Shown here: piece after piece, positions 1-57,755 of the stretch | How positions within the stretch are numbered: position 1 is the first letter of the stretch | Layout: every line of letters starts with the position of its first letter | Source: Yuukianura sp. NJ FZ-2021 | Lineage: Eukaryota | NCBI GenBank assembly: GCA_046563655.1 | Contig: CM102285.1 | Coordinates: 7,378,001-7,442,000, forward strand | Direction: 5' to 3' | Length of the DNA: 64,000 nt | The notes under the pieces: generated by a model | The model's input: only the letters and a program-made list of their open reading frames with translations | Database searches by the model: none | Told to the model about the DNA's origin: nothing | Program-made: the position numbers and the translations under genes

Positions 1-3000
1 TTCAAAAAACCTCAGTGCGGAACGATGCCGGGTGAAAATGACTTACTTTTCTGAACTCCTCCTGAAAAGTACTGCAGGACCCCAAGTTTAATTGGTGTGG
101 ATAGATCGCCATTAAAGCTGGATAGAGCGGACTTAAAAGTCGGGATTAATCGCTCCGCCTCGAATTTTATCTGGGGTTTTTATACCGCACCCAGGGTAAT
201 GCCGAGCACCATTTTGACGTAAAACGACTTAAATTGGTGAGAATAAACATGCAAATGTGAGAATGAACGAAAAGTAAATTACATTTTTGAAATCCTCATA
301 AAAAGTGCCACAGGTACACACTTTCACTTGTTGTGTTGTCCCTCATCTTGTTCCCTTTATTTATGAAAATTCATGTTTCAAAACAAAGAATTCAAAAGAA
401 ATGCATTCCTTAACGATGCTGGGTAAAAGTCAACTACATTTCTGAATTCCTCATAAAAAGTGCTACAGTAACCCACTTTCACTTGCTGTGTCGTCCCTCA
501 TCTTGTTACCTTTATTTATGAAAATTCATGTTTCAAAACAACAAATTCAAGAAAGTTGCACTCCGGAACGATACTGGGTAAAAGTCAACTACAGTTTTGA
601 AATCCTCATAAAAAAGGCTACATGAACCCAATTTCACTTGCTGTGTCGTCCCTCATCTCGTTACATTTATTTATGAAAATTTGTTTCAAAACAAAGCATT
701 CGAAAAACCTCAGTGCGGAACGATGCCGGGTGAAAATGACTTACTTTTCTGAACTCCTCCTGAAAAGTACTGCAGGACCCCAAGTTTAATTGGTGTGGAT
801 AGATCGCCATTAAAGCTGGATAGAGCGGACTTAAAAGTCGGGATTAATCGCTCCGCCTCGAATTTTATCTGGGGTATTTATACCGCACCCAGGGTAATGC
901 CGAGCACCATTTTGACGTAAAATGACTTAAATTGGTGAGAATGAACATGCAAATGTGAGAATGAACGAAAAGTAAATTACATTTTTGAAATCCTCATAAA
1001 AAGTGCCACAGGTACACACTGTCACTTGCTGTGTCGTCCCTCATCTTGTTCCCTTTATTTATGAAAATTCATGTTTCAAAACAAAGAATTCAAAAGAAAT
1101 GCATTCCGGAACGATGCTGGGTAAAAGTCAACTACATTTCTGAATTCCTCATAAAAAGTGCTACAGTAACCCACTTTCACTTGCTGTGTCGTCCCTCATC
1201 TTGTTACCTTTATTTATGAAAATTCATGTTTCAAAACAACAAATTCAAGAAAGTTGCACTCCGGAACGATACTGGGTAAAAGTCAACTACAGTTTTGAAA
1301 TCCTCATAAAAAAGGCTACATGAACCCAATTTCACTTGCTGTGTTGTCCCTCATCTCGTTACATTTATTTATGAAAATTTGTTTCAAAACAAAGCATTCG
1401 AAAAACCTCAGTGCGGAACGATGCCGGGTGAAAATGACTTACTTTTCTGAACTCCTCCTGAAAAGTACTGCAGGACCCCAAGTTTAATTGGTGTGGATAG
1501 ATCGCCATTAAAGCTGGATAGAGCGGACTTAAAAGTCGGGATTAATCGCTCCGCCTCGAATTTTATCTGGGGTTTTTATACTGCACCCAGGGTAATGCCG
1601 AGCACCATTTTGACGTAAAACGACTTAAATTGGTGAGAATGAACATGCAAATGTGAGAATGAACGAAAAGTAAATTACATTTTTGAAATCCTCATAAAAA
1701 GTGCCACAGGTACACACTTTCACTTGCTGTGTCGTCCCTCATCTTGTTCCCTTTATTTATGAAAATTCATGTTTCAAAACAAAGAATTCAAAAGAAATGC
1801 ATTCCGGAACGATGCTGGGTAAAAGTCAACTACATTTCTGAATTCCTCATAAAAAGTGCTACAGTAACCCACTTTCACTTGCTGTGTCGTCCCTCATCTT
1901 GTTACCTTTATTTATGAAAATTCATGTTTCAAAACAACAAATTCAAGAAAGTTGCACTCCGGAACGATACTGGGTAAAAGTCAACTACAGTTTTGAAATC
2001 CTCATAAAACAGGCTACATGAACCCAATTTCACTTGCTATGTCGTCCCTCATCTCGTTACTTTTATTTATGAAAATTTGTTTCAAAACAAAGCATTCGAA
2101 AAACCTCAGTGCGGAACGATGCCGGGCTAAAATGACTTACTTTTCTGAACTCCTCCTGAAAAGTACTGCAGGACCCCAAGTTTAATTGGTGTGGATAGAT
2201 CGCCTTTAAAGCTGGATAGAGCGGACTTGAAAGTCGGGATTAATCTATCCGCCTCGAATTTTATCTGGGGTTTTTTATACCGCACCCAGGGTAATGCCGA
2301 GCACCATTTTGACGTAAATCGACTTAAATTGGTGAGAATGAACATGCAAATGTGAGAAAGAACGAAAAGTAAATTACATTTTTGAAATCCTCATAAAAAG
2401 TGCTACAGTAACCCACTTTCACTTGCTGTGTCGTCCCTCATCTTGTTACCTTTATTTATGAAAATTCATGTTTCAAAACAACAAATTCAAGAAAGTTGCA
2501 CTCCGGAACGATACTGGGTAAAAGTCAACTACAGTTTTGAAATCCTCATAAAAAGGGCTACATGAACCCAATTTCACTTGCTGTGTCGTCCCTCATCTCG
2601 TTACATTTATTTATGAAAATTTGTTTCAAAACAAAGCATTCGAAAAACCTCAGTGCGGAACGATGCCGGGTGAAAATGACTTACTTTTCTGAACTCCTCC
2701 TGAAAAGTACTGCAGGACCCCAAGTTTAATTGGTGTGGATAGATCGCCATTAAAGCTGGATAGAGCGGACTTAAAAGTCGGGATTAATCGCTCCGCCTCG
2801 AATTTTATCTGGGGTTTTTATACCGCACCCAGGGTAATGCCGAGCACCATTTTGACGTAAAATGACTTAAATTGGTGAGAATGAACATGCAAATGTGAGA
2901 ATGAACGAAAAGTAAATTACATTTTTGAAATCCTCATAAAAAGTGCCACAGGTACACACTGTCACTTGCTGTGTCGTCCCTCATCTTGTTCCCTTTATTT

Positions 3001-6000
3001 ATGAAAATTCATGTTTCAAAACAAAGAATTCAAAAGAAATGCATTAGGGAACGATGCTGGGTAAAAGTCAACTACATTTCTGAATTCCTCATAAAAAGTG
3101 CTACAGTAACCCACTTTCACTTGCTGTGTCGTCCCTCATCTTGTTACCTTTATTTATGAAAATTCATGTTTCAAAACAACAAATTCAAGAAAGTTGCACT
3201 CCGGAACGATACTGGGTAAAAGTCAACTACAGTTTTGAAATCCTCATAAAAAAGGCTACATGAACCCAATTTCACTTGCTGTGTCGTCCCTCATCTCGTT
3301 ACTTTTATTTATGAAAATTTGTTTCAAAACAAAGCATTCGAAAAACCTCAGTGCGGAACGATGCCGGGTGAAAATGACTTACTTTTCTGAACTCCTCCTG
3401 AAAAGTACTGCAGGACCCCAAGTTTAATTGGTGTGGATAGATCGCCATTAAAGCTGGATAGAGCGGACTTGAAAGTCGGGATTAATCTATCCGCCTCGAA
3501 TTTTATTTGGGGTTTTTATACCGCACCCAGGGTAATGCCGAGCACCATTTTGACGTAAAACGACTTAAATTTGTGAGAATGAACAGGCAAATGTGAGAAT
3601 GAACGAAAAGTAAATTACATTTTTGAAATCCTCATAAAAAGTGCTACAGGTACACACTTTCACTTGCTGTGTCGTCCCTCATCTTGTTCCCTTTATTTAT
3701 GAAAATTCATGTTTCAAAACAAAGAATTCAAAAGAAATGCATTCCGGAACGATGCTGGGTAAAAGTCAACTACATTTCTGAATTCCTCATAAAAAGTGCT
3801 ACGCAACCCACTTTCACTTGCTGTGTCGTCCCTCATCTTGTTCCCTTTATTTATGAAAACTCATGTTTCAAAACAAAGAATTCAAGAAAGTTGCACTCCG
3901 GAACGATACTGGGTAAAAGTCAACTACAGTTTTGAAATCCTCATAAAAAAGGCTACATGAACCCAATTTCACTTGCTGTGTCGTTGTCGTCCCTCATCTC
4001 GTTACTTTTATTTATGAAAATTTGTTTCAAAACAAAGCATTCGAAAAACCTCAGTGCGGAACGATGCCGGGTGAAAATGACTTACTTTTCTGAACTCCTC
4101 CTGAAAAGTACTGCAGGACCCCAAGTTTAATTGGTGTGGATAGATCGCCATTAAAGCTGGATAGAGCGGACTTGAAAGTCGGGATTAATCTATCCGCCTC
4201 GAATTTTATTTGGGGTTTTTATACCGCACCCAGGGTAATGCCGAGCACCATTTTGACGTAAAACGACTTAAATTTGTGAGAATGAACAGGCAAATGTGAG
4301 AATGAACGAAAAGTAAATTACATTTTTGAAATCCTCATAAAAAGTGCTACAGGTACACACTTTCACTTGCTGTGTCGTCCCTCATCTTGTTCCCTTTATT
4401 TATGAAAATTCATGTTTCAAAACAAAGAATTCAAAAGAAATGCATTCCGGAACGATGCTGGGTAAAAGTCAACTACATTTCTGAATTCCTCATAAAAAGT
4501 GCTACAGTAACCCACTTTCACTTGCTGTGTCGTCCCTCATCTTGTTACCTTTATTTATGAAAATTCATGTTTCAAAACAACAAATTCAAGAAAGTTGCAC
4601 TCCGGAACGATACTGGGTAAAAGTCAACTACAGTTTTGAAATCCTCATAAAAAAGGCTACATGAACCCAATTTCACTTGCTGTGTCGTTGTCGTCCCTCA
4701 TCTCGTTACTTTTATTTATGAAAATTTGTTTCAAAACAAAGCATTCGAAAAACCTCAGTGCGGAACGATGCCGGGTGAAAATGACTTACTTTTCTGAACT
4801 CCTCCTGAAAAGTACTGCAGGACCCCAAGTTTAATTGGTGTGGATAGATCGCCATTAAAGCTGGATAGAGCGGACTTGAAAGTCGGGATTAATCTATCCG
4901 CCTCGAATTTTATTTGGGGTTTTTATACCGCACCCAGGGTAATGCCGAGCACCATTTTGACGTAAAACGACTTAAATTTGTGAGAATGAACAGGCAAATG
5001 TGAGAATGAACGAAAAGTAAATTACATTTTTGAAATCCTCATAAAAAGTGCTACAGGTACACACTTTCACTTGCTGTGTCGTCCCTCATCTTGTTCCCTT
5101 TATTTATGAAAATTCATGTTTCAAAACAAAGAATTCAAAAGAAATGCATTCCGGAACGATGCTGGGTAAAAGTCAACTACATTTCTGAATTCCTCATAAA
5201 AAGTGCTACAGTAACCCACTTTCACTTGCTGTGTCGTCCCTCATCTTGTTACCTTTATTTATGAAAATTCATGTTTCAAAACAACAAATTCAAGAAAGTT
5301 GCACTCCGGAACGATACTGGGTAAAAGTCAACTACAGTTTTGAAATCCTCATAAAAAAGGCTACATGAACCCAATTTCACTTGCTGTGTCGTCCCTCATC
5401 TCGTTACTTTTATTTATGAAAATTTGTTTCAAAACAAAGCATTCGAAAAACCTCAGTGCGGAACGATGCCGGGTGAAAATGACTTACTTTTCTGAACTCC
5501 TCCTGAAAAGTACTGCAGGACCCCAAGTTTAATTGGTGTGGATAGATCGCCATTAAAGCTGGATAGAGCGGACTTGAAAGTCGGGATTAATCTATCCGCC
5601 TCAAATTTTATCTGGGGTTTTTATACCGCACCCAGGGTAATGCCGAGCACCATTTTGACGTAAAACGACTTAAATTTGTGAGAATGAACAGGCAAATGTG
5701 AGAATGAACGAAAAGTAAATTACATTTTTGAAATCCTCATAAAAAGTGCCACAGGTACACACTTTCACTTGCTGTGTCGTACCTCATCTTGTTCCCTTTA
5801 TTTATGAAAATTCATGTTTCAAAACAAAGAATTCAAAAGAAATGCATTCCTTAACGATGCTGGGTAAAAGTCAACTACATTTCTGAATTCCTCATAAAAA
5901 GTGCTACAGTAACCCACTTTCACTTGCTGTGTCGTCCCTCATCTTGTTACCTTTATTTATGAAAATTCATGTTTCAAAACAACAAATTCAAGAAAGTTGC

Positions 6001-7831
6001 ACTCCGGAACGATACTGGGTAAAAGTCAACTACAGTTTTGAAATCCTCATAAAAAAGGCTACATGAACCCAATTTCACTTGCTGTGTTGTCCCTCATCTC
6101 GTTACATTTATTTATGAAAATTTGTTTCAAAACAAAGCATTCGAAAAACCTCAGTGCGGAACGATGCCGGGTGAAAATGACTTACTTTTCTGAACTCCTC
6201 CTGAAAAGTACTGCAGGACCCCAAGTTTAATTGGTGTGGATAGATCGCCATTAAAGCTGGATAGAGCGGACTTAAAAGTCGGGATTAATCGCTCCGCCTC
6301 GAATTTTATCTGGGGTTTTTATACCGCACCCAGGGTAATGCCGAGCACCATTTTGACGTAAAACGACTTAAATTGGTGAGAATGAACATGCAAATGTGAG
6401 AATGAACGAAAAGTAAATTACATTTTTGAAATCCTCATAAAAAGTGCCACAGGTACACACTTTCACTTGCTGTGTCGTCCCTCATCTTGTTCCCTTTATT
6501 TATGAAAATTCATGTTTCAAAACAAAGAATTCAAAAGAAATGCATTCCGGAACGATGCTGGGTAAAAGTCAACTACATTTCTGAATTCCTCATAAAAAGT
6601 GCTACAGTAACCCACTTTCACTTGCTGTGTCGTCCCTCATCTTGTTACCTTTATTTATGAAAATTCATGTTTCAAAACAACAAATTCAAGAAAGTTGCAC
6701 TCCGGAACGATACTGGGTAAAAGTCAACTACAGTTTTGAAATCCTCATAAAACAGGCTACATGAACCCAATTTCACTTGCTATGTCGTCCCTCATCTCGT
6801 TACTTTTATTTATGAAAATTTGTTTCAAAACAAAGCATTCGAAAAACCTCAGTGCGGAACGATGCCGGGCTAAAATGACTTACTTTTCTGAACTCCTCCT
6901 GAAAAGTACTGCAGGACCCCAAGTTTAATTGGTGTGGATAGATCGCCTTTAAAGCTGGATAGAGCGGACTTGAAAGTCGGGATTAATCTATCCGCCTCGA
7001 ATTTTATCTGGGGTTTTTTATACCGCACCCAGGGTAATGCCGAGCACCATTTTGACGTAAATCGACTTAAATTGGTGAGAATGAACATGCAAATGTGAGA
7101 AAGAACGAAAAGTAAATTACATTTTTGAAATCCTCATAAAAAGTGCCATAGGTACACACTTTCACTTGCTGTGTTGTCCCTCATCTTGTTCCCTTTATTT
7201 ATGAAAATTCATGTTTCAAAACAAAGAATTCAAAAGAAATGCATTCCTTAACGATGCTGGGTAAAAGTTAACTACTTTTCTGAATTCCTCATAAAAAGTG
7301 CTACAGTCACCCACTTTCACTTGCTGTGTCGTCCCTCATCTTGTTACCTTTATTTATGAAAATTCATGTTTCAAAACAACAAATTCAAGAAAGTTGCACT
7401 CCGGAACGATACTGGGTAAAAGTCAACTACAGTTTTGAAATCCTCATAAAAAAGGCTACATGAACCCAATTTCACTTGCTGTGTCGTCCCTCATCTTGTT
7501 CCCTTTATTTATGAAAATTCATGTTTCAAAACAAAGAATTCAAAAGAAATGCATTCCGGAACGATGCTGGGTAAAAGTCAACTACATTTCTGAATTCCTC
7601 ATAAAAAGTGCTACAGTAACCCACTTTCACTTGCTGTGTCGTCCCTCATCTTGTTACCTTTATTTATGAAAATTCATGTTTCAAAACAACAAATTCAAGA
7701 AAGTTGCACTCCGGAACGATACTGGGTAAAAGTCAACTACAGTTTTGAAATCCTCATAAAACAGGCTACATGAACCCAATTTCACTTGCTATGTCGTCCC
7801 TCATCTCGTTACTTTTGTTTATGAAAATTTG
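1..7831. repeat. Higher-order satellite array, left block (~698-bp unit = 3 x ~154-bp monomers + ~200-bp spacer)
   Basis: CAGTGCGGAACGATGCC recurs at 13, 711, 1409 (period 698). The monomer motif TTTCACTTG..CCCTCATC recurs at ~154-bp spacing. Units are near identical, with occasional monomer gain or loss. Confidence 0.97.
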
Positions 7832-8581
7832 TGTTTGTGACTCGGTCACTTGAAGGACCTAACCTGAGCTGTCAATTGTAGGAATAAAGCAAAATGGCGG
7901 AACACAAGACAGATCCAATTTTATGAGCACTTTATTTGCTCAAGTCTTTAGATTATTAATTAAAACAAGTTGTGGTCACACACACAGACAGACAGGAGGG
8001 AACAGACAGGAGATGTTGGTGGCTCAGTGGCTGAACAGACTCTCTCGGTGAAGCACAAGACTCCACATCAATGTCCAGGAGAAGCCTGGACATGTCCACG
8101 CCAATGTCAAAGCTCACTTTGACCTTGGCGTCTCACTCTTTTTTATGCACTCACAACCTGCCTCTGGTTGACTCACAAAGTCAACCAATGACAGGCTGCA
8201 AATCAACCACAGCTACAAACACTCCCACCTGATGTACGCAGTACATCACGCTAAACTAAATCCTAATTACCTAAATGGGTACTTAGGAGCACTGAAATCT
8301 TCTTGAGGGGGAAGCTAAGGGGACTCTGGAACCTACTTGAGGGGAAATATTTTTTAACTAAAATTTAGACCTAATTTTAGAAAAAAGATGAATTTTTTAG
8401 AATTGAATTTCTAACGAGAAAGGAAAACTACAACTAAAATTGAACTGAATTTTAGAAAAACAGGAAGTTTTAGAACAAAATTCTAAAGGAAAAGAAGTTT
8501 ATAACTAAAATTTAGAACTAAATCTTCGAAATAGGGGAACTCAAACACTCACACAATCAAATAATTAGTATTTGAAGTAAC

Positions 8582-11500
8582 TTATGATTTATACGCATAC
8601 GTATAAGTACCATCGTCGATCGGGAGAGGGGAAACCTTGACAATGGGACGGTTGTAAGTCTTGATGGTGACGTTTCCCTTGGCGTCAGTCACAGGAACAT
8701 TGACATCGCAAACTCGGACGAGGTTGTCCTTTCCAGGGTTGACTGCAGCAATTCGTCCCAATGTCCATTTCTGTTGTCCGAGATCCGAGTCGCTGTCGTT
8801 CAGCAAAACCAAAGTTCCTACTCCAAGGTTCTCCTGCTCTGCAAACCATTTTGGTGTCTTCTGAAGGCTCTGGAGGTACTGGGACGACCAACGACGGTTA
8901 AAATGCTGCGCCATTTGCTGGACATGTTGCCAGCGTGTCAATTGATGAACCTTGTACCCGTCCAGGTTCTCCTGTGGTGCAGCCTTCAAGGATCGTCCAA
9001 TTAGGAAATGTCCGGGGGTGAGGGCTGAGAAGTCGTTGGCATCTGATGACATTGGGGTCAAAGGTCGAGAGTTGAGGGTTGCCTCGATTCTTTTGAGGAG
9101 GGTCCAGAACTCTTCAATTGAAAGTCGCCTGTCACCAGCAACACGATGGAGATGAGTCTTCATCGATTTGACTCCAGCTTCAAAGATTCCGCCAAAATGT
9201 GGAGCATAGGGTGGATTAATGACAAATTCCACATTTTGATCCACGAAAAACTTTGACACTTGGTCAACATGAGATGTGGAAGTGACGAACTGCTGGAATT
9301 CTTCGATTTCATTTTTGGCACCAAGAAAGTTTCTCCCACCATCACACAAAATTTTTGAGGGACAGCCTCGGGTGGACACGAAACGATCAAATGCGCTTAA
9401 GAACGCGGGTGTGGACAGGTCACTTACGAACTCGAGGTGGATTGCTTTGACTGCTAAACAGACAAACACTGCCACGTATGCTTTTAGCAGTCTCGGGTTG
9501 CGTCCAGGAGTTGCATTGACGTGAAATGCACCAGCATAGTCAACTCCGACGTGGGTGAATGGTAAGGTTGGGGTCACTCGTGACATTGGTAATTGGCCCA
9601 TCTTCTGTCCCAACACTTTAGGACTGACCTTATGACATGTGATGCACTTCCGTACAACTGACGAGCAAACCTTTGGTCCATTTGGAATCCAAAACTTGTC
9701 ACGAACGAGAGAAAGGAGCAGTTGGGGTCCAGGATGGTTGTTCGATTGGTGCAGATGTCTGACGATACAAATAGTAAAATGGTGGTGGCGAGGAAGTAGG
9801 ATTGGATGCTTCTGGTCATAGGACCAGAAACTATGACGCAGTCTCCCTCCCACCCGTAAAATACCGTTTGCGTCGATAAACGGTGTGAGGGATTTTACGG
9901 TACTTGGAGAGGTCTTTTTCCTCTTACACCAATCCAATTCACTGGCAAACGTTTCTGATTGGACACAACGGACGAGAATGATGAGGGCTTGGTCCAATTC
10001 TTTTACAGTCAATGGTCCAATCACACTTTCACTATTTGGATGTAAATTGTTTATGTAGCGCATCCACACTGCTACATATCGTTTCATATTTTGAAACGAG
10101 TCACACTTTTGGATAAATGCTCCCACCGTCTCAAAAAACCAATTGGATGGAGTAACTACTTGAGATGTATTGTTGGTGGTAGCCATGGGAGCGGATTTTT
10201 GTAGCCATTCTGGACCATGTAGCCACAATGGATGTTTCAAAAACTGGAATACGGTAATTCCACGTGAAGCACAATCCGCTGGATTTTCATCACCATCAAC
10301 ATGATGCCAATTAGCAGAGGGGAGGAGCGATAAAATTTTTCGCACACGATTATGAACAAAAACGTCCAATTTTTTGTCTGAATTGATCCAGTTCAGCACA
10401 CAGGTGGAATCACACCAGCAGTTGATGGACGAAATGTGGAGTTGAACTGAAGAAATGACGGTTGTCATTAATTTGGCCAACAACACTGCTCCACATAGTT
10501 CCAAACGGGGAATTGTTTCTCCTTTCACTGGAGCGACACAAGTTTTTGCACAAAGGAGATTAACAATTGGAGGAACGGTACTTGAAAACACTTTCAAGTA
10601 AACACAGGCAGAATATGCTGAGATACTGGCATCACAAAAACCGTGGAGTTCGAATTCGGTTGAAGTAAGGTTGGAGTGTACGACACACCTTGGAACAAAA
10701 AACGAATTTAGACGGACGATGTCGATTGTATAGTTGTACCATTCGTCCAACAAATCGTCCGGAAGTGGAGAGTCCCAGTCCAGATTCGCCTTCCACAATT
10801 TTTGCATGAGGATCTTTGGACGAATGATGACGGGTGACAACCAGCCCAAAGGATCAAAAATCCTGGCAATGCTGGAAAGAACTTTTCGTTTTGTCGTGAC
10901 GACTGGAATTTGTCCAGGAAACTTGGAAGTTGAATTGGAGTGGAGATTGGAATTCAATTTCACACTGAAAGTGTCAAGAGACGGATTCCACAGTAATCCG
11001 ATTGTTTTCACTGTTCCGTCTTCTGTAATTTCGAGGGTGTGACTTTTCGCCTGATTTTCGGAAGTGACAGATGAAACGACGATTGGACTGTTCGAAGTCC
11101 ATTTTCGCAGTTGTAATTTCCCGATTTCCATGACACTGAGCAGTTCTTGTTGTAGTTTGATTGCCTCTTCAACGGAAGGGGCGCCAGACAATAAATTGTC
11201 CACGAGGAACTGAGTCTTGATGACATGGCATGCGGATGGAAATTGTTCAAAGTTATCATCTGCCAACTGGTGGAGACAACGAATGGCTAGAAAAGGAGCG
11301 GGGGCAACACCAAATGTCACTCGGGTCATTTTCATATCCATCACTGGGTCAACTGGAGACGGACGGTAGAGTAGACGTTGATAGTCATTGACATCACTAT
11401 GAACAGAAAAACAGTTGTAAAATTTAGTGATGTCAGCAGACATAGCTACAATATGTGTGCGAAAATGGAGTAACAAAGGAACCAGATCAACTTGAAGTTT

Positions 11501-11590
11501 AGGACCAGTGTGTAAAACATTGTTGAGCGAAAGTCCATTTGATGACTTGGCACTGGCATCAAAAACAATTCTGTACTTGGTGGTGCTGCT
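8582..11590 (-). CDS. BEL/Pao pol (partial RT, Pao RNase H region, integrase, DUF5641-like C-terminus); 5'-truncated by deletion
   Basis: Motifs TTKYRIVFDAS..SLN..GPKLQ, ADITKFY, RVTFG, LVDN, FDPLG, LHGFCDAS, TIPRLEL, NPAD.ASRG, LRVGGRL, H..H-C..C zinc finger, GVDYAG, CDGGRNF, APHFGGIFE, LTPGHFLIG. Pol homology extends ~115 bp upstream of the listed ORF start. Confidence 0.93.
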   Translation of the reverse strand, partial: SSTTKYRIVFDASAKSSNGLSLNNVLHTGPKLQVDLVPLLLHFRTHIVAMSADITKFYNCFSVHSDVNDYQRLLYRPSPVDPVMDMKMTRVTFGVAPAPFLAIRCLHQLADDNFEQFPSACHVIKTQFLVDNLLSGAPSVEEAIKLQQELLSVMEIGKLQLRKWTSNSPIVVSSVTSENQAKSHTLEITEDGTVKTIGLLWNPSLDTFSVKLNSNLHSNSTSKFPGQIPVVTTKRKVLSSIARIFDPLGWLSPVIIRPKILMQKLWKANLDWDSPLPDDLLDEWYNYTIDIVRLNSFFVPRCVVHSNLTSTEFELHGFCDASISAYSACVYLKVFSSTVPPIVNLLCAKTCVAPVKGETIPRLELCGAVLLAKLMTTVISSVQLHISSINCWCDSTCVLNWINSDKKLDVFVHNRVRKILSLLPSANWHHVDGDENPADCASRGITVFQFLKHPLWLHGPEWLQKSAPMATTNNTSQVVTPSNWFFETVGAFIQKCDSFQNMKRYVAVWMRYINNLHPNSESVIGPLTVKELDQALIILVRCVQSETFASELDWCKRKKTSPSTVKSLTPFIDANGILRVGGRLRHSFWSYDQKHPILLPRHHHFTICIVRHLHQSNNHPGPQLLLSLVRDKFWIPNGPKVCSSVVRKCITCHKVSPKVLGQKMGQLPMSRVTPTLPFTHVGVDYAGAFHVNATPGRNPRLLKAYVAVFVCLAVKAIHLEFVSDLSTPAFLSAFDRFVSTRGCPSKILCDGGRNFLGAKNEIEEFQQFVTSTSHVDQVSKFFVDQNVEFVINPPYAPHFGGIFEAGVKSMKTHLHRVAGDRRLSIEEFWTLLKRIEATLNSRPLTPMSSDANDFSALTPGHFLIGRSLKAAPQENLDGYKVHQLTRWQHVQQMAQHFNRRWSSQYLQSLQKTPKWFAEQENLGVGTLVLLNDSDSDLGQQKWTLGRIAAVNPGKDNLVRVCDVNVPVTDAKGNVTIKTYNRPIVKVSPLPIDDGTYTYAYKS

Positions 11591-11910
11591 TTGTTGGATT
11601 CCATTCTCTTCCGGTGGATTTCTCCCACCTTCACGAGAATGGAAAATACGGAATTTTCTAAAGTCGTCAGGGATTCGCCCAACTCAGCTTTGGTCTTGTC
11701 TTCATCGTCGGGGAGACTAAACCACCTCCTTCGAAGACCTTTGACCTCGGCTTGAAGCTCCTTCACCTCGTCCCATGTTAGTTGGATTTCCGCCGTTGTC
11801 ACAGATCTGCCGGGAGTCAGCCATCCACCATAGCGATTTTGGTACGTGAGGATTGAGTTGGATGAGAAGGCAATATCGGATCCCAACATGTCGATTTCTG
11901 ACTTGACCAT
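11590..11910 (-). pseudogene. N-terminal gag fragment of the BEL element, joined out of frame to mid-RT
   Basis: ATG ORF (MVKSEIDML...) with coiled-coil character directly after the leader. The sequence switches to the pol frame near AGCAGCACCACC (~11590). No zinc knuckles or protease motif remain. Confidence 0.7.
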
Positions 11911-12454
11911 GATGAACTTTTGACACTAGGTCACTCGTTGACACCAAAAACACGATGGGAGTGACTCAACAGTCACTAGACACAAGTCCAATTGGTAACA
12001 CAAGGCTACTTGACACAAGGTCAAGGACGTACAATTGACACTAAAGTCTCAAAATTGGAAAAATGTTTGTGACTCGGTCACTTGAAGGACCTAACCTGAG
12101 CTGTCAATTGTAGGAATAAAGCAAAATGGCGGAACACAAGACAGATCCAATTTTATGAGCACTTTATTTTGCTCAAGTCTTTAGATTATTAATTAAAACA
12201 AGTTGTGGTCACACACACAGACAGACAGGAGGGAACAGACAGGAGATGTTGGTGGCTCAGTGGCTGAACAGACTCTCTCGGTGAAGCACAAGACTCCACA
12301 TCAATGTCCAGGAGAAGCCTGGACATGTCCACGCCAATGTCAAAGCTCACTTTGACCTTGGCGTCTCACTCTTTTTTATGCACTCACAACCTGCCTCTGG
12401 TTGACTCACAAAGTCAACCAATGACAGGCTGCAAATCAACCACAGCTACAAACA

Positions 12455-15400
12455 ATTTGTTTCAAAACAAAGCATTCGAAAAACCTCAGTGCGGAACGAT
12501 GCCGGGCTAAAATGACTTACTTTTCTGAACTCCTCCTGAAAAGTACTGCAGGACCCCAAGTTTAATTGGTGTGGATAGATCGCCTTTAAAGCTGGATAGA
12601 GCGGACTTGAAAGTCGGGATTAATCTATCCGCCTCGAATTTTATCTGGGGTTTTTTATACCGCACCCAGGGTAATGCCGAGCACCATTTTGACGTAAATC
12701 GACTTAAATTGGTGAGAATGAACATGCAAATGTGAGAAAGAACGAAAAGTAAATTACATTTTTGAAATCCTCATAAAAAGTGCCACAGGTACACACTTTC
12801 ACTTGCTGTGTTGTCCCTCATCTTGTTCCCTTTATTTATGAAAATTCATGTTTCAAAACAAAGAATTCAAAAGAAATGCATTCCTTAACGATGCTGGGTA
12901 AAAGTCAACTACATTTCTGAATTCCTCATAAAAAGTGCTACAGTCACCCACTTTCACTTGCTGTGTCGTCCCTCATCTTGTTACCTTTATTTATGACAAT
13001 TCATGTTTCAAAACAACAAATTCAAGAAAGTTGCACTCCGGAACGATACTGGGTAAGAGTCAACTACAGTTTTGAAATCCTCATAAAAAAGGCTACATGA
13101 ACCCAATTTCACTTGCTGTGTCGTCCCTCATCTCGTTACATTTATTTATGAAAATTTGTTTCAAAACAAAGCATTCGAAAAACCTCAGTGCGGAACGATG
13201 CCGGGTGAAAATGACTTACTTTTCTGAACTCCTCCTGAAAAGTACTGCAGGACCCCAAGTTTAATTGGTGTGGATAGATCGCCATTAAAGCTGGATAGAG
13301 CGGACTTAAAAGTCGGGATTAATCGCTCCGCCTCGAATTTTATCTGGGGTTTTTATACCGCACCCAGGGTAATGCCGAGCACCATTTTGACGTAAAACGA
13401 CTTAAATTGGTGAGAATGAACATGCAAATGTGAGAATGAACGAAAAGTAAATTACATTTTTGAAATCCTCATAAAAAGTGCCACAGGTACACACTTTCAC
13501 TTGCTGTGTCGTCCCTCATCTTGTTCCCTTTATTTATGAAAATTCATGTTTCAAAACAAAGAATTCAAAAGAAATGCATTCCGGAACGATGCTGGGTAAA
13601 AGTCAACTACATTTCTGAATTCCTCATAAAAAGTGCTACAGTAACCCACTTTCACTTGCTGTGTCGTCCCTCATCTTGTTACCTTTATTTATGAAAATTC
13701 ATGTTTCAAAACAACAAATTCAAGAAAGTTGCACTCCGGAACGATACTGGGTAAAAGTCAACTACAGTTTTAAAATCCTCATAAAACAGGCTACATGAAC
13801 CCAATTTCACTTGCTGTGTCGTCCCTCATCTCGTTACTTTTATTTATGAAAATTTGTTTCAAAACAAAGCATTCGAAAAACCTCAGTGCGGAACGATGCC
13901 GGGTGAAAATGACTTACTTTTCTGAACTCCTCCTGAAAAGTACTGCAGGACCCCAAGTTTAATTGGTGTGGATAGATCGCCATTAAAGCTGGATAGAGCG
14001 GACTTAAAAGTCGGGATTAATCGCTCCGCCTCGAATTTTATCTGGGGTTTTTATACCGCACCCAGGGTAATGCCGAGCACCATTTTGACTTAAAACGACT
14101 TAAATTGGTGAGAATGAACATGCAAATGTGAGAATGAACGAAAAGTAAATTACATTTTTGAAATCCTCATAAAAAGTGCCACAGGTACACACTTTCACTT
14201 GCTGTGTCGTCCCTCATCTTGTTCCCTTTATTTATGAAAATTCATGTTTCAAAACAAAGAATTCAAAAGAAATGCATTCCGGAACGATGCTGGGTAAAAG
14301 TCAACTACATTTCTGAATTCCTCATAAAAAGTGCTACAGTAACCCACTTTCACTTGCTGTGTCGTCCCTCATCTTGTTACCTTTATTTATGAAAATTCAT
14401 GTTTCAAAACAACAAATTCAAGAAAGTTGCACTCCGGAACGATACTGGGTAAAAGTCAACTACAGTTTTGAAATCCTCATAAAAAAGGCTACATGAGCCC
14501 AATTTCACTTGCTGTGTCGTCCCTCATCTCGTTACTTTTATTTATGAAAATTTGTTTCAAAACAAAGCATTCGAAAAACCTCAGTGCGGAACGATGCCGG
14601 GTGAAAATGACTTACTTTTCTGAACTCCTCCTGAAAAGTACTGCAGGACCCCAAGTTTAATTGGTGTGGATAGATCGCCATTAAAGCTGGATAGAGCGGA
14701 CTTAAAAGTCGGGATTAATCGCTCCGCCTCGAATTTTATCTGGGGTTTTTATACCGCACCCAGGGTAATGCCGAGCACCATTTTGACTTAAAACGACTTA
14801 AATTGGTGAGAATGAACATGCAAATGTGAGAATGAACGAAAAGTAAATTACATTTTTGAAATCCTCATAAAAAGTGCCACAGGTACACACTTTCACTTGC
14901 TGTGTCGTCCCTCATCTTGTTCCCTTTATTTATGAAAATTCATGTTTCAAAACAAAGAATTCAAAAGAAATGCATTCCTTAACGATGCTGGGTAAAAGTC
15001 AACTACATTTCTGAATTCCTCATAAAAAGTGCTACAGTAACCCACTTTCACTTGCTGTGTCGTCCCTCATCTTGTTACCTTTATTTATGAAAATTCATGT
15101 TTCAAAACAACAAATTCAAGAAAGTTGCACTCCGGAACGATACTGGGTAAAAGTCAACTACAGTTTTGAAATCCTCATAAAAAAGGCTACATGAACTCAA
15201 TTTCACTTGTTGTGTCGTCCCTCATCTCGTTACATTTATTTATGAAAATTTGTTTCAAAACAAAGCATTCGAAAAACCTCAGTGCGGAACGATGCCGGGT
15301 GAAAATGACTTACTTTTCTGAACTCCTCCTGAAAAGTACTGCAGGACCCCAAGTTTAATTGGTGTGGATAGATCGCCATTAAAGCTGGATAGAGCGGACT

Positions 15401-50154: not shown

Positions 50155-51167
50155 TGTGACCCTACCCGGCGACGGATGACTCCTCTGAAATAACACTACA
50201 CTACAGATAAACTCAAATCCAGAACTACAATACACATCAGATAAACGACCAATGTGTTGAGCGATGTTTACTGAGATCTAGAAAACTCCCTACTTCAAGA
50301 CGACTTCACCGAAATCTCGAAGGTCAGAGGTCACCTTCACCTTGACCTTCCTTATATGACAAAAGCCTGCTAACCCGATCACAGGTCTAAAAGCTAAAAT
50401 AACTCTATGCTAATATGGTGATCCTTTGACCTTGACAGTCGGTCAACCTACGCTGTTCGTGACTTGGTTACAATTCGGCCTAACCTGAGCGCTCATTTGT
50501 TGGGAATAATCAAAATGGCGAAACAAAGAAATCCAATTTTGAGCACTTTATTTTTGCTCAAGGTCAAGATCTTATTACTAAATACAAATGTGTCACATAC
50601 ACACGGGAAAGAAGGAAAAAGAGGTATTGGTGGCTCAGTGGCTGGACACTAAAACACTTGACCTAACTCTCTCTCTCTCTCTCTCTCACAGACTCTCACA
50701 GTCAAGCCCAAGCGGAGGGTTAACTTTGTCCAAGGCAAAGTCAACACTCCTCCAATTGGGTCTCCGGCCAAAGTGAACACAGACTCTGACCTTGAGTTTT
50801 CTTTCTTTTATGACTTCAAACACAAATTATGGAATCAACCAGAGGCACTACCAATCAAAGCTCGACTCTAGCTCCCTCCGACTCAGTTCGACTCTCCACC
50901 CGGACATCGGCTCAGAGTCCCTCGGAGTCCAAGTGAACACACTCGACCCCTTGGGGTCCAATCACAGACTATCGATTGAGTGCGTACATGGCTCATACGT
51001 CGTAATAGAAATGCCTCCGGACTCAGTAGTCCTTGAGTTATTCCAGTATTGGCTGCTGCGCCATAAAGTGGCCTTAGGCCCTGATATATGCGAATGCTTA
51101 AAGGCGTATTGCCTCTTAGAGTGTTAGTGGCGTAACCCGCTTAAACCGCTCACATATTCCCCTCCTC
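50155..51167 (-). mobile_element. 3' LTR (50155-51154) plus PPT of an LTR retrotransposon, interrupted by a BEL-type LTR
   Basis: TGTGA...TCACA ends and upstream PPT GAGGAGGGGAATA. Colinear reverse-complement homology with 62248-62868 (e.g. TGTGAGCGGTTTAAGCGG, AGGCCACTTTATGGCGC, AGTAGGGAGTTTTCTAGATCTCA). Confidence 0.8.
50454..50860 (-). mobile_element. Truncated LTR related to the 7.8-kb BEL element
   Basis: Shares TGTT.GTGACT.GGT, CCTAACCTGAGC, CAAAATGGCG, TCCAATTTT, GAGCACTTTATTT..GCTCAAG and TTGGTGGCTCAGTGGCTG in the same order. The U3 end and TSD are not recognisable. Confidence 0.8.
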
Positions 51168-51257
51168 ACGGTGAAATTCCTGGAAGAAGTTTGAACAGTT
51201 TTCTACTTAACATTGCTCAATTTTCGACATGTTTAACTTTTGCTTTTGATTTTCTTT

Positions 51258-52548
51258 TTTTTTTTTTTATTTGTAAATTACTCTCCCTGCGGGCCCGAAG
51301 CCCATGGAGAGGGAGTTCGAGTGGAGTTTGTGTACATTAAATTACTAATTTAAATGAAATGGAATTTTAGTATAAATTTGAAATGAGCGTTGGTTCTGAT
51401 GCTTTGTAACTGTCTTCATGGTATTACTGGTTGCGATGAGTGTCGAATGCAATGTGCATTGTTTGCAGTTTCATTGGTGTTGGAGATGTTTTGTAGGTCA
51501 TAGAGCATTGCTGGATGGGCTGGATTCGGCTTTGAAAGTTTTGGAGCAAGTGTGGGAGACATTGTTTAAAGATGCTGATTCTGAGTTTTTGGATGTATTT
51601 TGGATTCGGATGTGTCAGCAGTTCCGAGGGATGAGTCTCCTTCGTAATTTGGGTTGCGAGTACGTTTGCAAGTTGTTGGAATGATGATGAATTTGTTGAA
51701 TGATGATTTTTTTTTGAGAGGTTATTGACGTATCGGTTGAATGTCACCGTTGGGGTCAAGTTTGTAGCGCGAGGATCGGCCGTTGCTTGTGGTCGTCAAG
51801 GTTCCGTTCCGGACGGTGAATCTTAGTCCTGGGGTCAGCTTGGCTAAGTCGATGGCTGTGTTTCGCAGCTTCGTTTCCACGGTCCTTTCGTGTGCCGTTT
51901 TTTCGGAGCGAATTTGTATGGCTTTGAAATCCGGGTCGGGGCTCAGCGTCTTCAGTTTTCTGAAAATATCAAACTTGTCTTTTCGCCTGATGAGCTTCAC
52001 TTGAACTGGTCGAGGTCTTTGGATTCCTTGCTTGAATCTTCCCAATCTTCGGGTGTGGCTGTAGTCTGTGCCGGTCAAATCGAATTTGGAAAGGAGAGTG
52101 TCAATTTTACCTTCTAGATCTGCTGTGGTTTCCGTGTCAGCGTCTGGAATGCCGTATACAATGATGTTCGATTCAATTGACTCCCTCTTAAGTTTTTCGA
52201 GTTCATTTTCCAGAACATCCACTCTGTTGACAACACTGACCAACGCAGAGAAATCGGTGTCATTGATCTTTGTAATCGCAGATTCAAAGTCAATAAGCTT
52301 CGAAAGTAGGTAGTTGATTTTGTCTTCCAAGTTTCCGCGTGATGCTTCTTCCCTAATCCTTTTGTCTTCTTTTCCTTGGTCGTTTGGTTTCAAAGGTGAA
52401 GACGCTATGCGTTTTGCAGCAGTACCAAAGAGACTTTTTGGCTCATTAGGTGGTGGGGAGCGATTTACTCGGAACATGTTCTCTATTGTTCTTTAATTAA
52501 GAGCAGAAGAGTGTACGTCTAATCTGGAGTGTGTCTAAACTCGAACTC
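51258..52548 (-). mobile_element. Non-LTR retrotransposon (CR1/L2-group-like) with intact ORF1 and almost no ORF2
   Basis: Poly(A) tail with AATAAA, ~15-bp TSD CTTTTGATTTTCTTT (51243-51257, 52549-52563), and a 3' stem-loop. Confidence 0.85.
51722..52477 (-). CDS. LINE ORF1 protein (coiled coil + RRM-like + CTD)
   Basis: 251-aa ORF with NIIVYGIPD, RRLGRF...RPRPVQVKL and I.IRSEKT..ER, typical of L1-type/CR1-group ORF1p. Confidence 0.85.
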   Translation of the reverse strand: MFRVNRSPPPNEPKSLFGTAAKRIASSPLKPNDQGKEDKRIREEASRGNLEDKINYLLSKLIDFESAITKINDTDFSALVSVVNRVDVLENELEKLKRESIESNIIVYGIPDADTETTADLEGKIDTLLSKFDLTGTDYSHTRRLGRFKQGIQRPRPVQVKLIRRKDKFDIFRKLKTLSPDPDFKAIQIRSEKTAHERTVETKLRNTAIDLAKLTPGLRFTVRNGTLTTTSNGRSSRYKLDPNGDIQPIRQ

Positions 52549-52776
52549 CTTTTGATTTTCTTTAAATGATAGTTTTGAATCTTTCAAATAACTTTTAACA
52601 CATTCAATATATAAAACTTTGAAATTTTAAAGGCGTTTTTCTTAGTTGTTGGTCTTAAGTTACCGAGACAAGAAAAAAATCTTGTACAGGGTAGGCGAAG
52701 ATTAATAACAACAAAATCTCGTGCTCATAAGGTGAACCGTGGTAGCGTCCCCCAAGGTCGGCAATTTATTAATTTA

Positions 52777-53412
52777 TCAATAACATAATTTTGTGAAATA
52801 ATCTGGGGGTAGTTCAGCAAATGCCTGAGAAATTGCTTGCTTGAGATCAAGCAAGTTCTCGATATTTTTGTAATAAACTTTTTCTTTAATAAAAACCCAT
52901 AATCCGTAATCGCAAGGAGTTAGGTCAGGAGATCTAGGGGGCCATGCAACACCAAAACGTTTGACTCCTCTGCCAATCCAGTTACAACCAAATGTATCGT
53001 CCAGGAATTTTCTAACGATGATTCCAAAATGAGGCGATGCGCCATCTTGCATGAAAATTTGGTCATAGAAACCACAGATTCCCCGGTGATACCTTAGAGT
53101 TGAGCGTTTCATGTTAAGTGTCACTGCTGCCCGATTAATTGAAGTTTTCGGATTTGTTGAGAAGTGGGCCTCGACGGTGTTTGTTTTGGCAAGTGAGAGA
53201 GGATGTCTAGTATTCTTTTTCCGTTCTTCTCCTTTAGGACTTTCCACTTTGCATCTGCTGTGGATTCGTTCTGCGAGTCTTCCGACACATGATCGGTTTG
53301 GTCGGTTTGATGTAAATGGCCACAATTTAATTACCTCACTTGCTTTTCCTGTTTTGGTGAATTGTTCGAAGATCCACATTTTCTCATCTTTAGTAAGTTG
53401 ACCTCTAGGCAT
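52777..53412 (-). pseudogene. Internally deleted mariner-type transposase
   Basis: HTH region fused directly to FMQDGASPH...WIGRG...WPPRSPDLTPCDYGLW. The region carrying the first catalytic Asp is missing. Confidence 0.85.
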
Positions 53413-53603
53413 CGTCAGAAACTAAAGAGTAAATAGCATTAGCATTAGTGTAGGTCAACTGAATTAATTAAAACCAATTCTGGGAAAGTGAAATGATTAA
53501 CAGCTTACCTTTTGTCTGATTATTCCGATTATTGTCTAAGGCGTAAAATTATAGGCTTTTTACTAATCAAGTCAGTCACTACAACAGTCAGGAAAGGATC
53601 CTT

Positions 53604-54401
53604 AGCCTACGTTTCCATTACTCGGGTTAGAAGTTACTCGGGTACAACCCAAGTAAAAATTACCCGCGTTCCAATGACATTTAGGAAGCGAGTAAGATAT
53701 GAATTTTGCGCACTATTTTTCACGTGATCAGCAGACTTCCGAATTGACTCTTCTCATTTTCTCCTTGAGACTGGAAAAGCACTGCTGAGATTTTAAACAC
53801 AATTACTACAGCAGGTACTTTTTGCACTTAACAACCTCAATATTGTGTATTCGTTGCTTTCAATTAGCATATTATTGCATACTGCTGATTAATGTATTAC
53901 TTTGAACGATTAATTAGACCAATACGTCTGTTTAGCACTTAATCAACCGACTTTGTGCGTGTACATTAGTATAAGCGCTGGTTAATGATTAATCACTGTT
54001 GATTGTCCTTGAAATATACTATATGGAACAAATTAATCACAAGCAGCAGACACAAAGCAAACGTCAAAACAAAAATGAATTTTAGGAAGTCAGAAAATGT
54101 TTAAATCCGATTTTCACAATGAGAACAATAAAAAAATAATACAATTTCAAATTGTCTCAAGTTTGAAACACCAGTCACGTGAGAAATTGTACGCGAAATT
54201 CACAATCTAACTCGCAACCGCGTTTACATTACCCGACTTGTTCTACCCGGATAAGATCTTACCCTCTTTTTCTTGTAAGAAAGTGAGTTACTCTCTTTCT
54301 CCTCGAGTAATGGAAACGGAATCGAGTAAGGGTTACCCTACCCATTTCCATTACTCATTTGGGAGAGTTAACTCTCTTATCCGAGTAATGGAAACTAGGC
54401 T
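53604..54401. mobile_element. PIF/Harbinger-like MITE nested in the mariner
   Basis: TIR AGCCTA(C)GTTTCCATTACTCGG at both ends, TTA-like flanks, GAGTAA subterminal repeats. Confidence 0.65.
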
Positions 54402-54621
54402 TTAGTAATCAAGACGAATACTTAATTAATTATAGATTCTAATTAACTATTCCTAGAAGCAAACTGTTGGAAACTCAACTTTACATGCTGACGGGGGTTG
54501 AGTCTTTTGTTTGGTAAATTCTGCCGACTCCCGCTCAATTTTTGTTTCCCGCCAACCCAAAATTAAAAAAATCTTAAGTTCCGATTTGGTTTTGTTGTTA
54601 TTAATCTTCGCCTACCCTGTA

Positions 54622-55350
54622 TAATGATTCTTATAATATATTCATCCTGAGGGGATGCACATCCACCATGACTCCGATAAGAGTTGCGTTATGCTTTGTT
54701 TGAAGTAATTCCATATCCGCTAGTTATTGGAATTCAGTGTTTTGCGGTACCCAATCGGTTTGTTGGCGTAATTCTGTGCTTTTTGTCATTTGTTAACAAA
54801 AGCCTCTAAAATCCGATGCGTTCTCCACAAGGGTATGGGCGGAAAGTAGTAGTGATTGCTAGTTCCAGATGTGTAATTAGGTCTGGTGCAATCATGTAAT
54901 ATTGGTTGTGATGTTCGTATCTTATGCAAAGAGGATGATTTGTACCGGTCTTCCCACAGTATTACTGTGGACATCAGTTCACAGAATTCATTTTTAACGT
55001 CACAAGGTGCGACGGTTTGTCGGTGTTTGACGCTTATGTGTTTGTTGTGATTGACTTTGAAATTATGAAGTTAGATGTAATATTTAGTTTTTCTATCATA
55101 GATAGTTATAGGCGAAGAATACCATGTATACACCCATTTGTTTGTTCCGAAAAATGTTTCGTTTAACCTTCCCAACGCAACTACTTCAGGATTTTTATAA
55201 GTACTGACTAGATCTTGACATTCTTTGACTGTCATTTGATGCCAAATATTCTCAAAATGATGATATTGTGGACTGGACCAAAGAAATAATATTTCTATAT
55301 TCGTAATCTTCCACTTTAAAAAATTCGTAAGCAACATATTTCTTAACGAA
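54622..55350 (-). pseudogene. Second degraded class III-like env glycoprotein fragment
   Basis: LFLWSS...TVKECQDLV...FGTNKWVYTWY...CDVKNEFCELMSTVILWED, truncated by the mariner. Very decayed Gypsy pol-like traces lie upstream (55.9-56.4 kb). Confidence 0.5.
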
Positions 55351-56599: not shown

Positions 56600-57755
56600 C
56601 AGGGCTTTCGTGGTTAGGTTTTCATGACCAGCAGCAATAAACTGTGATATTGGTTGCTAACGTTTCGTGTTTGTTGGCAAACTCATTCACTGTCTATTGG
56701 TAGATTCTAGATTGTGGCCACGTTTGCCAGCGACGTTAGGTTGTTGAAGTAGATGTTGTTAGTATAGTGTTGTTTGTACTCCTTGAGAGCGGCTACGGCG
56801 GTTACGAACTTTTGTTTCCAGTCACTGCACTGGAGTTCTATTACTTTAAACTTTGTGTCGTAGGTCAGAATCGTCGAAGTCTCCACCGACACAGGCGACG
56901 AATTTGTTATGGAAACTAATGGCATCGTGAAGTAGGACTCCGATTCCAATCACACAAGTCTTCATGTTAGGGATAGGCATAGGAACCTCACCAGTGTCAC
57001 TCACCACTCTTTCTGTTGTTTTCGCCACCTTTTTGGTGACCTTTTGACACTAGTGCCAGATTTCTCTGGATCCGACATGGCGAACTTCGCTTAGGTCACT
57101 GAACGTTGGAAAAAGTTTTTCAAAACTGGTAGGTCACACAATTGGAAAAATGTTCGGTTAGGTGTCAAAATAGAGCTGAGAATCTCCTTATGAGATGTAC
57201 GACTCAGAACACGGTAAAGGAAAGCAAAGCAACACAGGCAAGACAAGACGTCCAATTGTTTAAGAATTTATTCAGGACTTGTCTTGTCAACGGAAAAAAG
57301 CAAACTTATCACTAAAAGGTCATGTGTTGAAATTATTGAATAAACACACAAACTACAACAACTTGTAATTGAATTTTTTGATGGTTTTTATTTATAACAA
57401 AGAAATGTCCTACACCACGGTTTCACGAGGCAAGGTTAGGTTAACTTCTAACAATCTGGGTAACTAGTATTCATACTACTCCAGTGACCTAGACTTAGCA
57501 CTAGTGATTTCCTACTGCCCTTAACTAAAACGTTATTCTTCCTAGAGTGTGCGTCAGAACTGACCTTATAACTATTTTCCGGGTTCTAACTATTTCTACA
57601 AAAAGAATAACATCAAATTAATAAACTAATAAATTGTAGGTGACCAATTCCTGTTCCTGATTCCAACTTACGTTATAAAGGTCCTAGAACTTAATTAGTC
57701 ACAAGTAACTTATCATAAGTAATTAATCTTGTTTGGTATTTTCAACACCCTTCTC
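56600..57755 (-). mobile_element. BEL-like LTR (57151-57747) with PPT upstream and PBS-position motif, leader and decayed gag start downstream
   Basis: TGTT...AACA ends and PPT GAGAAGGG at 57748-57755. The junction ATTGGAAAAA|TGTT is identical to that of the 12-kb element, and both share the leader 13-mer CTTTTGACACTAG. ATG (MSDPEK) at ~57079. Confidence 0.7.

Follow-up and report, generated by a model that had tools for sequence, protein, structure and literature searches.

A primer site that complements the predicted end of R in a derived clade of BEL/Pao retrotransposons

We found that in a derived clade of BEL/Pao LTR retrotransposons the stretch occupying the primer-site position, just 3' of the 5' LTR, is the complement of a site inside the element's own LTR, hereafter X. 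As far as sequence comparison can establish it, the X/primer-site pairing is real and under constraint, because the layout recurs with different letters, both sides have changed and none of the pairs is broken. Only three independent elements, possibly four, are known to have this pairing; among them are W12 and W57, which lie at 12 and 57 kb of the window (the whole 64,000-nucleotide stretch of DNA analysed), and L003, a relative in a metagenome contig whose pol is 49% identical to that of W12.

The W12 element and the layout of its LTR

W12 is a recent, correctly formed BEL/Pao insertion, and its parts and predicted signals are as follows.

7832..12454, minus strand: W12, BEL/Pao LTR retrotransposon of 4623 bp with an LTR pair and Pfam pol regions, internally deleted and non-autonomous
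12455..12459 (other copy 7827-7831), minus strand: target-site duplication CAAAT, 5 bp
12064..12454, minus strand: 5' LTR, TGTTTGT...ACAAACA, 391 nt (boundary slightly corrected)
7832..8221, minus strand: 3' LTR, 390 nt
8585..11683, minus strand: open pol frame (RT, RNase H, integrase), 1033 aa
12371..12380, minus strand: candidate TATA box CATAAAAAAG, about 210 nt upstream of AATAAA
12163..12168, minus strand: AATAAA, predicted poly(A) signal, the sole AATAAA/ATTAAA among the final 170 LTR nt
12146..12154, minus strand: site X, AAAATTGGA, predicted cleavage/poly(A) site and end of R, exact complement of the primer-site core
12133..12145, minus strand: GT-rich downstream element TCTGTCTTGTGTT, directly 3' of X, predicted start of U5
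12060..12063, minus strand: run of four T separating the LTR end from the primer-site core, which would pair with the first tail A or is an inherited spacer
12051..12059, minus strand: primer-site core TCCAATTTT, 9 nt, complement of X
12042..12050, minus strand: GAGACTTTA, which prolongs the complementarity, with bulges, back into the AATAAAG region

The two LTRs of W12 differ by a single A, in the run before AATAAA; they have TG..CA ends and are flanked by the target-site duplication, and a purine tract, AGGTGGGAG (8222-8230, minus strand), lies just upstream of the 3' LTR. The pol is of the Pao type, with Pfam matches to Peptidase_A17 (8.5e-53), DUF5641 (2.4e-24) and Integrase_H2C2, and is 53% identical over 994 aa to a 1720-aa homologue, of which residues 743-1717 were aligned; since the alignment begins only at residue 743, most of gag and the protease is absent and the copy is non-autonomous. 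The insertion site is a satellite with a 698-bp period and 155-bp subrepeats, at least 56 copies in all, which occupies positions 1-7900 and 12650 onward of the window. Because W12 was reverse-transcribed recently, the sequence 3' of its 5' LTR must have worked as a primer site.

That sequence does not resemble a conventional primer site. The 5' LTR ends in ACAAACA (12070-12064) and is followed by TTTTTCCAATTTTGAG (12063-12048), TGG is absent from the first 80 nt 3' of the LTR, and the leader contains neither the tRNA-Tyr motif of the relatives nor a tRNA 3'-end complement of the type given in the ICTV profile. Within the LTR, X starts 8 nt and ends 17 nt past AATAAA and is followed by a GU-rich tract. 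The original prediction had described both the LTR edge without a following TGG and this order of signals, and its letters and coordinates were all found as given. The motif by itself is not rare, as the 13-mer pattern matched three times in the window against 2.07 matches expected; judged from sequence, what is non-random is its position and the paired changes. The third match, at 60289-60301, was rejected as a primer site, having no LTR beside it.

Two further LTRs in the window bear on this layout.

57251..57272, minus strand: W57 LTR, AATAAA at 57272-57267 and X = ACAATTGGA at 57259-57251, then CGTCTTGTCTTG
57138..57150, minus strand: W57 primer site TTTTTCCAATTGT, adjoining the LTR end CGAACA (57151)
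50454..50860, minus strand: W50 LTR, related to the W12 LTR (74% over 209 nt), with a left boundary that is not fixed
50532..50552, minus strand: W50 AATAAA (50552-50547) and CTCAAAATTGGA (50543-50532), a 12-nt complement of the W12 primer site

Here, too, the earlier reading of the letters was borne out: relative to W12, the primer site and the LTR of W57 have changed T/G together, and the W50 LTR perfectly complements the W12 primer site over 12 nt. The description of these elements as BEL-type stands for W12, by virtue of its Pao-type pol; near W57 neither pol nor gag homology was found, nor a Pao-type coding region, nor a second LTR in the window, and W57 is linked to W12, and so to BEL/Pao, only through a similar LTR end and primer site. 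W50 has no primer site past its LTR end and is either a solo or a 3' LTR.

The position of X relative to the other signals suggests which end of R it marks. TATA-like tracts lie well upstream, not only in W12 but also in W57 (TATAAATAAAAA, about 125 nt upstream of AATAAA), and W50 has an A-rich tract, CATAAAAGAA, which is CATAAAGAA-like and stands near the place of the W12 TATA-like tract, offset by a few alignment columns; in relatives, TATATA or TATAAA occurs 170-260 nt before the LTR end, and in L085 AATAAA lies 93 nt before the LTR end. In W12, W57 and L003, X ends 16-26 nt past AATAAA and directly 5' of a GT-rich tract, tracts equivalent to that of W12 being present in W50, W57 and L003, and no further AATAAA/ATTAAA was found 3' of X in the U5 of W12, W57 and L003. 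With TATA-like tracts upstream and AATAAA just before X, X would be the end of R and not its start, and hence lie at the expected cleavage/polyadenylation site. We infer where polyadenylation occurs and where transcription starts, as well as the act of priming considered below.

DNA contigs of runs X1-X5, from two organisms, were aligned to positions 50300-57700 of the window. The LTRs of this region were multi-copy in the contigs of both organisms. Among the contig matches listed (X1-X5), X and the primer site of W57 showed no difference, and no loose contig end was seen at the W50 LTR end. Variant W57-family copies in two organisms (X1, X4) carry a duplicated primer-site unit that includes the T-run (window 57118-57162), and a loose end of X4 at 57148 reads GATCACTAAAATTGGAAAAGATGTTCGGAC on the plus strand; such a duplication is a rearrangement expected where strand transfer occurs and is not proof of it. 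Some W57-family copies in the X1 and X4 contigs are without 43 nt spanning the LTR/primer-site border. Separately, at window 50356-50984 a segment of 627-648 nt, including the W50 LTR and about 100 nt past its end, is missing from contigs of X1, X2 and X5, and copies or haplotypes may differ in whether they have it. A multi-copy stretch contains an open frame (51424-51795, minus strand) with a weak match to ATG5 UblA (E 0.0022, below the Pfam cut-off).

Paired changes among relatives and the ancestral primer site

BEL/Pao polyproteins turned up by the thousand in a protein search, and those nearest, with 47-53% identity, came from metagenome contigs; a viral contig collection yielded no relative. 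Alignment-based scans gave 77 loci in metagenome contigs and 41 in nominally bacterial MAGs. The latter 41 (L078-L118) bear bacterial or archaeal MAG titles and contain BEL/Pao polyproteins and several complete LTR elements; they are most likely misbinned eukaryotic DNA.

Primer sites of the conventional kind prevail among these relatives: 42 of the 55 with an LTR pair carry TGGTCCTTCGA 0-7 nt past the LTR, and L008 and L024 have degenerate forms of it. TGGTCCTTCGA is the complement of an 18-nt 3' fragment of tRNA-Tyr-GTA (bioRxiv 10.64898/2026.01.26.701835; suffix also 10.1101/061572). In the pol tree, W12, L003, L002 and L001 formed one clade (support 1.0), nested in a group of 16 (support 0.935); the rest of this group, where the leader could be read, is of the tRNA-Tyr type. 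Since the W12 clade is nested among tRNA-Tyr-primed groups, its tRNA-less state is derived, and by the evidence of this tree the clade is descended from tRNA-Tyr-primed ancestors. ARAGORN detected no tRNA within the window and, in 1.53 Mb of the relatives' loci, only four doubtful tRNAs, with no tRNA-Tyr among them and with a best primer-site complement of 7 nt.

A separate peculiarity was seen in nine of the 55 loci with LTR pairs (L026, L042, L045, L055, L058, L062, L063, L065, L076), all of them tRNA-Tyr-primed BEL/Pao relatives, in which a second copy of TGGTCCTTCGA lies inside the 5' LTR. This copy is direct, comprises the first 11 nt with at most one mismatch, and is located 53-155 nt before the LTR end between divergent flanks; it may represent an extra landing site for the tRNA.

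The original prediction had proposed covariation between primer site and LTR as a check, and L003 provided a further case of change on both sides. Its LTR reads AATAAA-N17-AAAATCCAA-CTCTGTGTCTTG and its leader junction ...CATAAACA|TTTTTTGGATTTTGAT, so that, compared with the elements of the window, TTGG has become TCCA in the LTR and CCAA has become TGGA in the primer site, in the same layout. In W12, W57 and L003 alike nine of nine positions pair and the complement begins exactly 4 nt past the LTR end; four of the nine pairs have changed on both sides, and no pair is broken. As X fell out of register in MAFFT alignments of the regions from the R end to the primer site, the pairs were tabulated by hand. 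The leader of L002 (ACA|ATTCCAATTTTGG) has a core identical to that of W12, preceded by just AT before TCCAATTTT, and the matching part of its LTR lies outside the contig.

Shuffled sequences containing a complement of at least 9 nt to the first 30 leader nt numbered 5 of 300 for W12, 9 of 300 for W57 and 1 of 300 for L003, and in 38 of 39 other BEL/Pao loci with LTR pairs, used as a control, the complement did not exceed 7 nt. With the position fixed and the changes paired, a chance origin of the pairing was rejected. Elements self-primed in the wide sense would be expected to have no tRNA site, to pair with their own LTR RNA through the sequence at the LTR edge, and to show paired changes between relatives, and all three were found here.

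Other BEL/Pao lineages without TGG were also observed. In L053 (1-120, 7103-7204) and L060 (2060-2200), GTAAAAACT stands immediately 3' of the LTR and its complement is contained in TTTCAGTTTTTAC, at 91 nt from the LTR end and with ATTAAA following 20 nt downstream. In L092 and L093 the post-LTR AGTTCAAC complements 8 nt, GTTGAACT, located directly before AATAAA and 44-48 nt from the LTR end, a length that 19 of 300 and 44 of 300 shuffles also reached. In contrast with the W12 clade, the layouts of these two pairs of loci look like that of Tf1. Finally, L031 (140-340, 6920-7105), grouped with L053 and L060, has the site GTAAAACATCG with an 11-nt complement at the start of its 3' repeat, the 5' copy of which differs.

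Candidate routes of priming

Having gained evidence for a constrained pairing between primer site and LTR raised the possibility that the element's own RNA serves as its primer. Priming of reverse transcription by the 3' end of R appears to be the best-supported mechanism for the W12 clade, and we give it roughly even credence. The clade (W12, W57, L003 and probably L002) would have swapped its ancestral tRNA-Tyr site for one that pairs with its own RNA at the R end. The primer would be the 3' terminus of genomic RNA or of a short R transcript, reading ...AAAAUUGGA and perhaps a few A of the tail; it would anneal at a distance of 4 nt from the LTR edge, which falls to 0 nt should the tail A pair as well, and prime minus-strand DNA across U5 and R, whereupon the new DNA would fold back onto the R of the attached RNA and be extended. 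Plus-strand strong-stop synthesis would then copy the remnant of the primer, so that every cycle would re-template the primer site from the end of R and the two sites would stay complementary. Only the 3' copy of X would be expected to give complete LTRs, since cutting the 5' copy would sever R from U5 and yield strong-stop DNA without R.

Some details of W12 touch on this re-templating. When reverse-complemented, its leader matches TAAAGTGCTCAAAATTGGA of W50 in 18 letters with one 1-nt gap, a score equalled by 1 of 500 shuffles, and the match resembles the copy of an RNA end. Past its first 9 nt, the primer site of W12 fits the W50 LTR better than its own, indicating that in its last cycle the site would not have been fully re-templated from its own R end. 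The duplex between X and the primer site is weak, at -9.1 to -11.3 kcal/mol, and reaches -12.8 to -15.0 kcal/mol with four A, a gain of about 3.7.

These four A lead to the version in which the poly(A) tail itself takes part. According to it, at least the last 9 nt of R together with about four tail A, trimmed at the duplex end, would prime the minus strand, transfer would be a fold-back within one chain, and the T-run and primer site would be rewritten from the R/poly(A) junction each cycle. If the poly(A) tail is long, its 3' part would stay unpaired as a flap, so that trimming must be assumed, comparable to the RNase H cut of Tf1. The sole argument for the tail is the T-run, and T-rich spacers occur in tRNA-primed relatives too, hence the four T may be inherited: the spacer of these relatives is T/A-rich and 0-7 nt long, at least three T stand directly before TGG in 6 of 42, TTTT or TTTTT precedes a canonical tRNA-Tyr site in L025, L072, L076, L079, L013 and L024, and L003 reads TTTTT-TGG just as they do. 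We therefore regard the tail version as distinctly doubtful. Of the 13-nt pairing including AAAA that had been put forward originally, the 9-nt exact complement holds, while the T-run is not peculiar to these elements; likewise, the proposed interpretation is sustained in the lack of TGG, the LTR complement at the predicted cleavage site and the paired change, while priming itself and the role given to the tail are less firmly based.

A different explanation is that the pairing is only a long-range RNA stem of the 5' leader, which hides the 5' poly(A) site or organises U5, and that the primer is something else. A long R containing AAUAAA requires its 5' site to be silenced, as is established for retroviruses, and the pairing, whose partner lies outside the LTR, is possible only at the 5' end. 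Moreover, for each of the three leaders (W12, W57, L003) both the minimum-energy and the centroid fold contained the stem, which closes U5, and in W12 it extends across the UAAAG of the hexamer. However, it stops short of the hexamer in W57 and L003, and folds of the whole region were no more stable than shuffles (z -1.75, -0.37 and +0.05 for the three leaders). In the relatives no pairing of hexamer to leader rose above shuffles (z -1.21 to +1.58), a noisy comparison; most of them lack AATAAA/ATTAAA in the last 170 nt. The stem by itself would also leave W12 without a recognisable primer site though it transposed recently, and would not account for a complement fixed at 4 nt from the LTR edge, the required place of a primer site. 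Thus, we consider this explanation unlikely, yet worth keeping in view.

Priming by the 3' end of R must also be weighed against a route of the Tf1 type, in which the transcript would start at or just before X, AATAAA would belong to U3, as it does in short-R retroviruses, and the 5' end of the RNA would fold onto the primer site and be cut at the duplex end. A CTCA just 5' of X in W12, W50 and L003 fits such a start, and L053/L060 and L092/L093, from other BEL/Pao clades, have X upstream of the poly(A) signal. On the other hand, AATAAA lies only 8-17 nt upstream of X, leaving no spacing for a TATA box, the TATA-like tracts are found 125-210 nt upstream, as in relatives, and with no AATAAA/ATTAAA past X, R would be about 10-20 nt long and consumed as primer. 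For the W12 clade we find this route improbable. Priming by a host RNA that the LTR site merely resembles, be it a mitochondrial tRNA, a fragment of a tRNA or some other small RNA, is very improbable, since, even though the L003 site starts with a canonical-like TGG after TTTTT and its X ends in CCA, W12 and W57 share one genome and differ in one pair while each primer site fits its own LTR, which argues against a shared host primer, three adjacent pairs differ again in L003 and are matched again by its LTR, and an LTR has no reason to copy the 3' end of a host primer at its poly(A) site.

Comparison with known priming systems

Two routes of priming are established for LTR elements, by a host tRNA, whole or in part, and by the fold-back of the RNA 5' end as in Tf1, and to our knowledge the latter is known only in chromoviruses. 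If priming by the R end is true, the W12 clade would use neither of them and represent a third solution, in which 3'-end formation and the initiation of cDNA synthesis are coupled; its elements would be freed from host tRNA and from the tRNA-fragment-based silencing of primer sites, and annotation software that seeks tRNA complements would score them differently. For BEL/Pao the expectation has been tRNA priming, as the original prediction noted, and the ICTV Belpaoviridae profile agrees, giving an 18-nt site for tRNA-Arg or tRNA-Gly, priming by host tRNA, and replication as poorly understood (PMC8742986). Full-text literature searches, subscription papers and supplements aside, brought up no account of BEL/Pao self-priming and none of a primer site that matches the poly(A) site, in keeping with the novelty supposed at the outset; the terms PBS, primer binding, tRNA and priming are all absent from the BEL/Pao survey PMC3118150. 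W12 shares with canonical BEL/Pao elements the pol domains, the TGT..ACA LTR ends and the T/A-rich post-LTR spacer, whereas the relatives use a tRNA-Tyr or other TGG-type site and the W12 clade has none.

Complementarity between leader and 3' region has precedents in which a tRNA still primes. In Ty1 (CYC5/CYC3) and in the bipartite primer site of Ty3, the leader adjacent to the primer site complements the 3' region of the same RNA and tRNA-iMet remains the primer, whereas in the W12 clade the complementary stretch sits at the primer-site position itself. The poly(A) hairpin of HIV-1 is local, lies within R and covers the AAUAAA/cleavage region in the 5' copy of R, with tRNA-Lys3 as primer, whereas the partner strand in the W12 clade occupies the primer-site position, outside the LTR.

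Closer to the present case are elements for which self-priming has been proposed or described. Skipper of Dictyostelium has a pyrimidine-rich stretch and no TGG after its left LTR, and unconventional self-priming was proposed for it; no complementary LTR region was found and a simple poly(A) primer was judged unlikely (PMC5006619). Unlike this amoebal chromovirus, the W12 clade has a specific LTR complement. In Tf1, the primer site is paired by the 11 leading bases of the transcript, with RNase H cutting between bases 11 and 12 (PMC7175516). The W12 clade resembles Tf1/sushi elements in having no tRNA site and a post-LTR stretch that pairs with its own LTR RNA, over 11 nt in Tf1 and 9-13 nt in the W12 clade, and a cut at the end of the RNA duplex, as outlined there (PMC7175516), could make the primer end here as well. 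However, Tf1/sushi elements are Ty3/gypsy chromoviruses and W12 pol groups with BEL/Pao instead, and, while Tf1 uses the start of its transcript, at the start of R, the W12 clade is predicted to use the end of R, after AATAAA.
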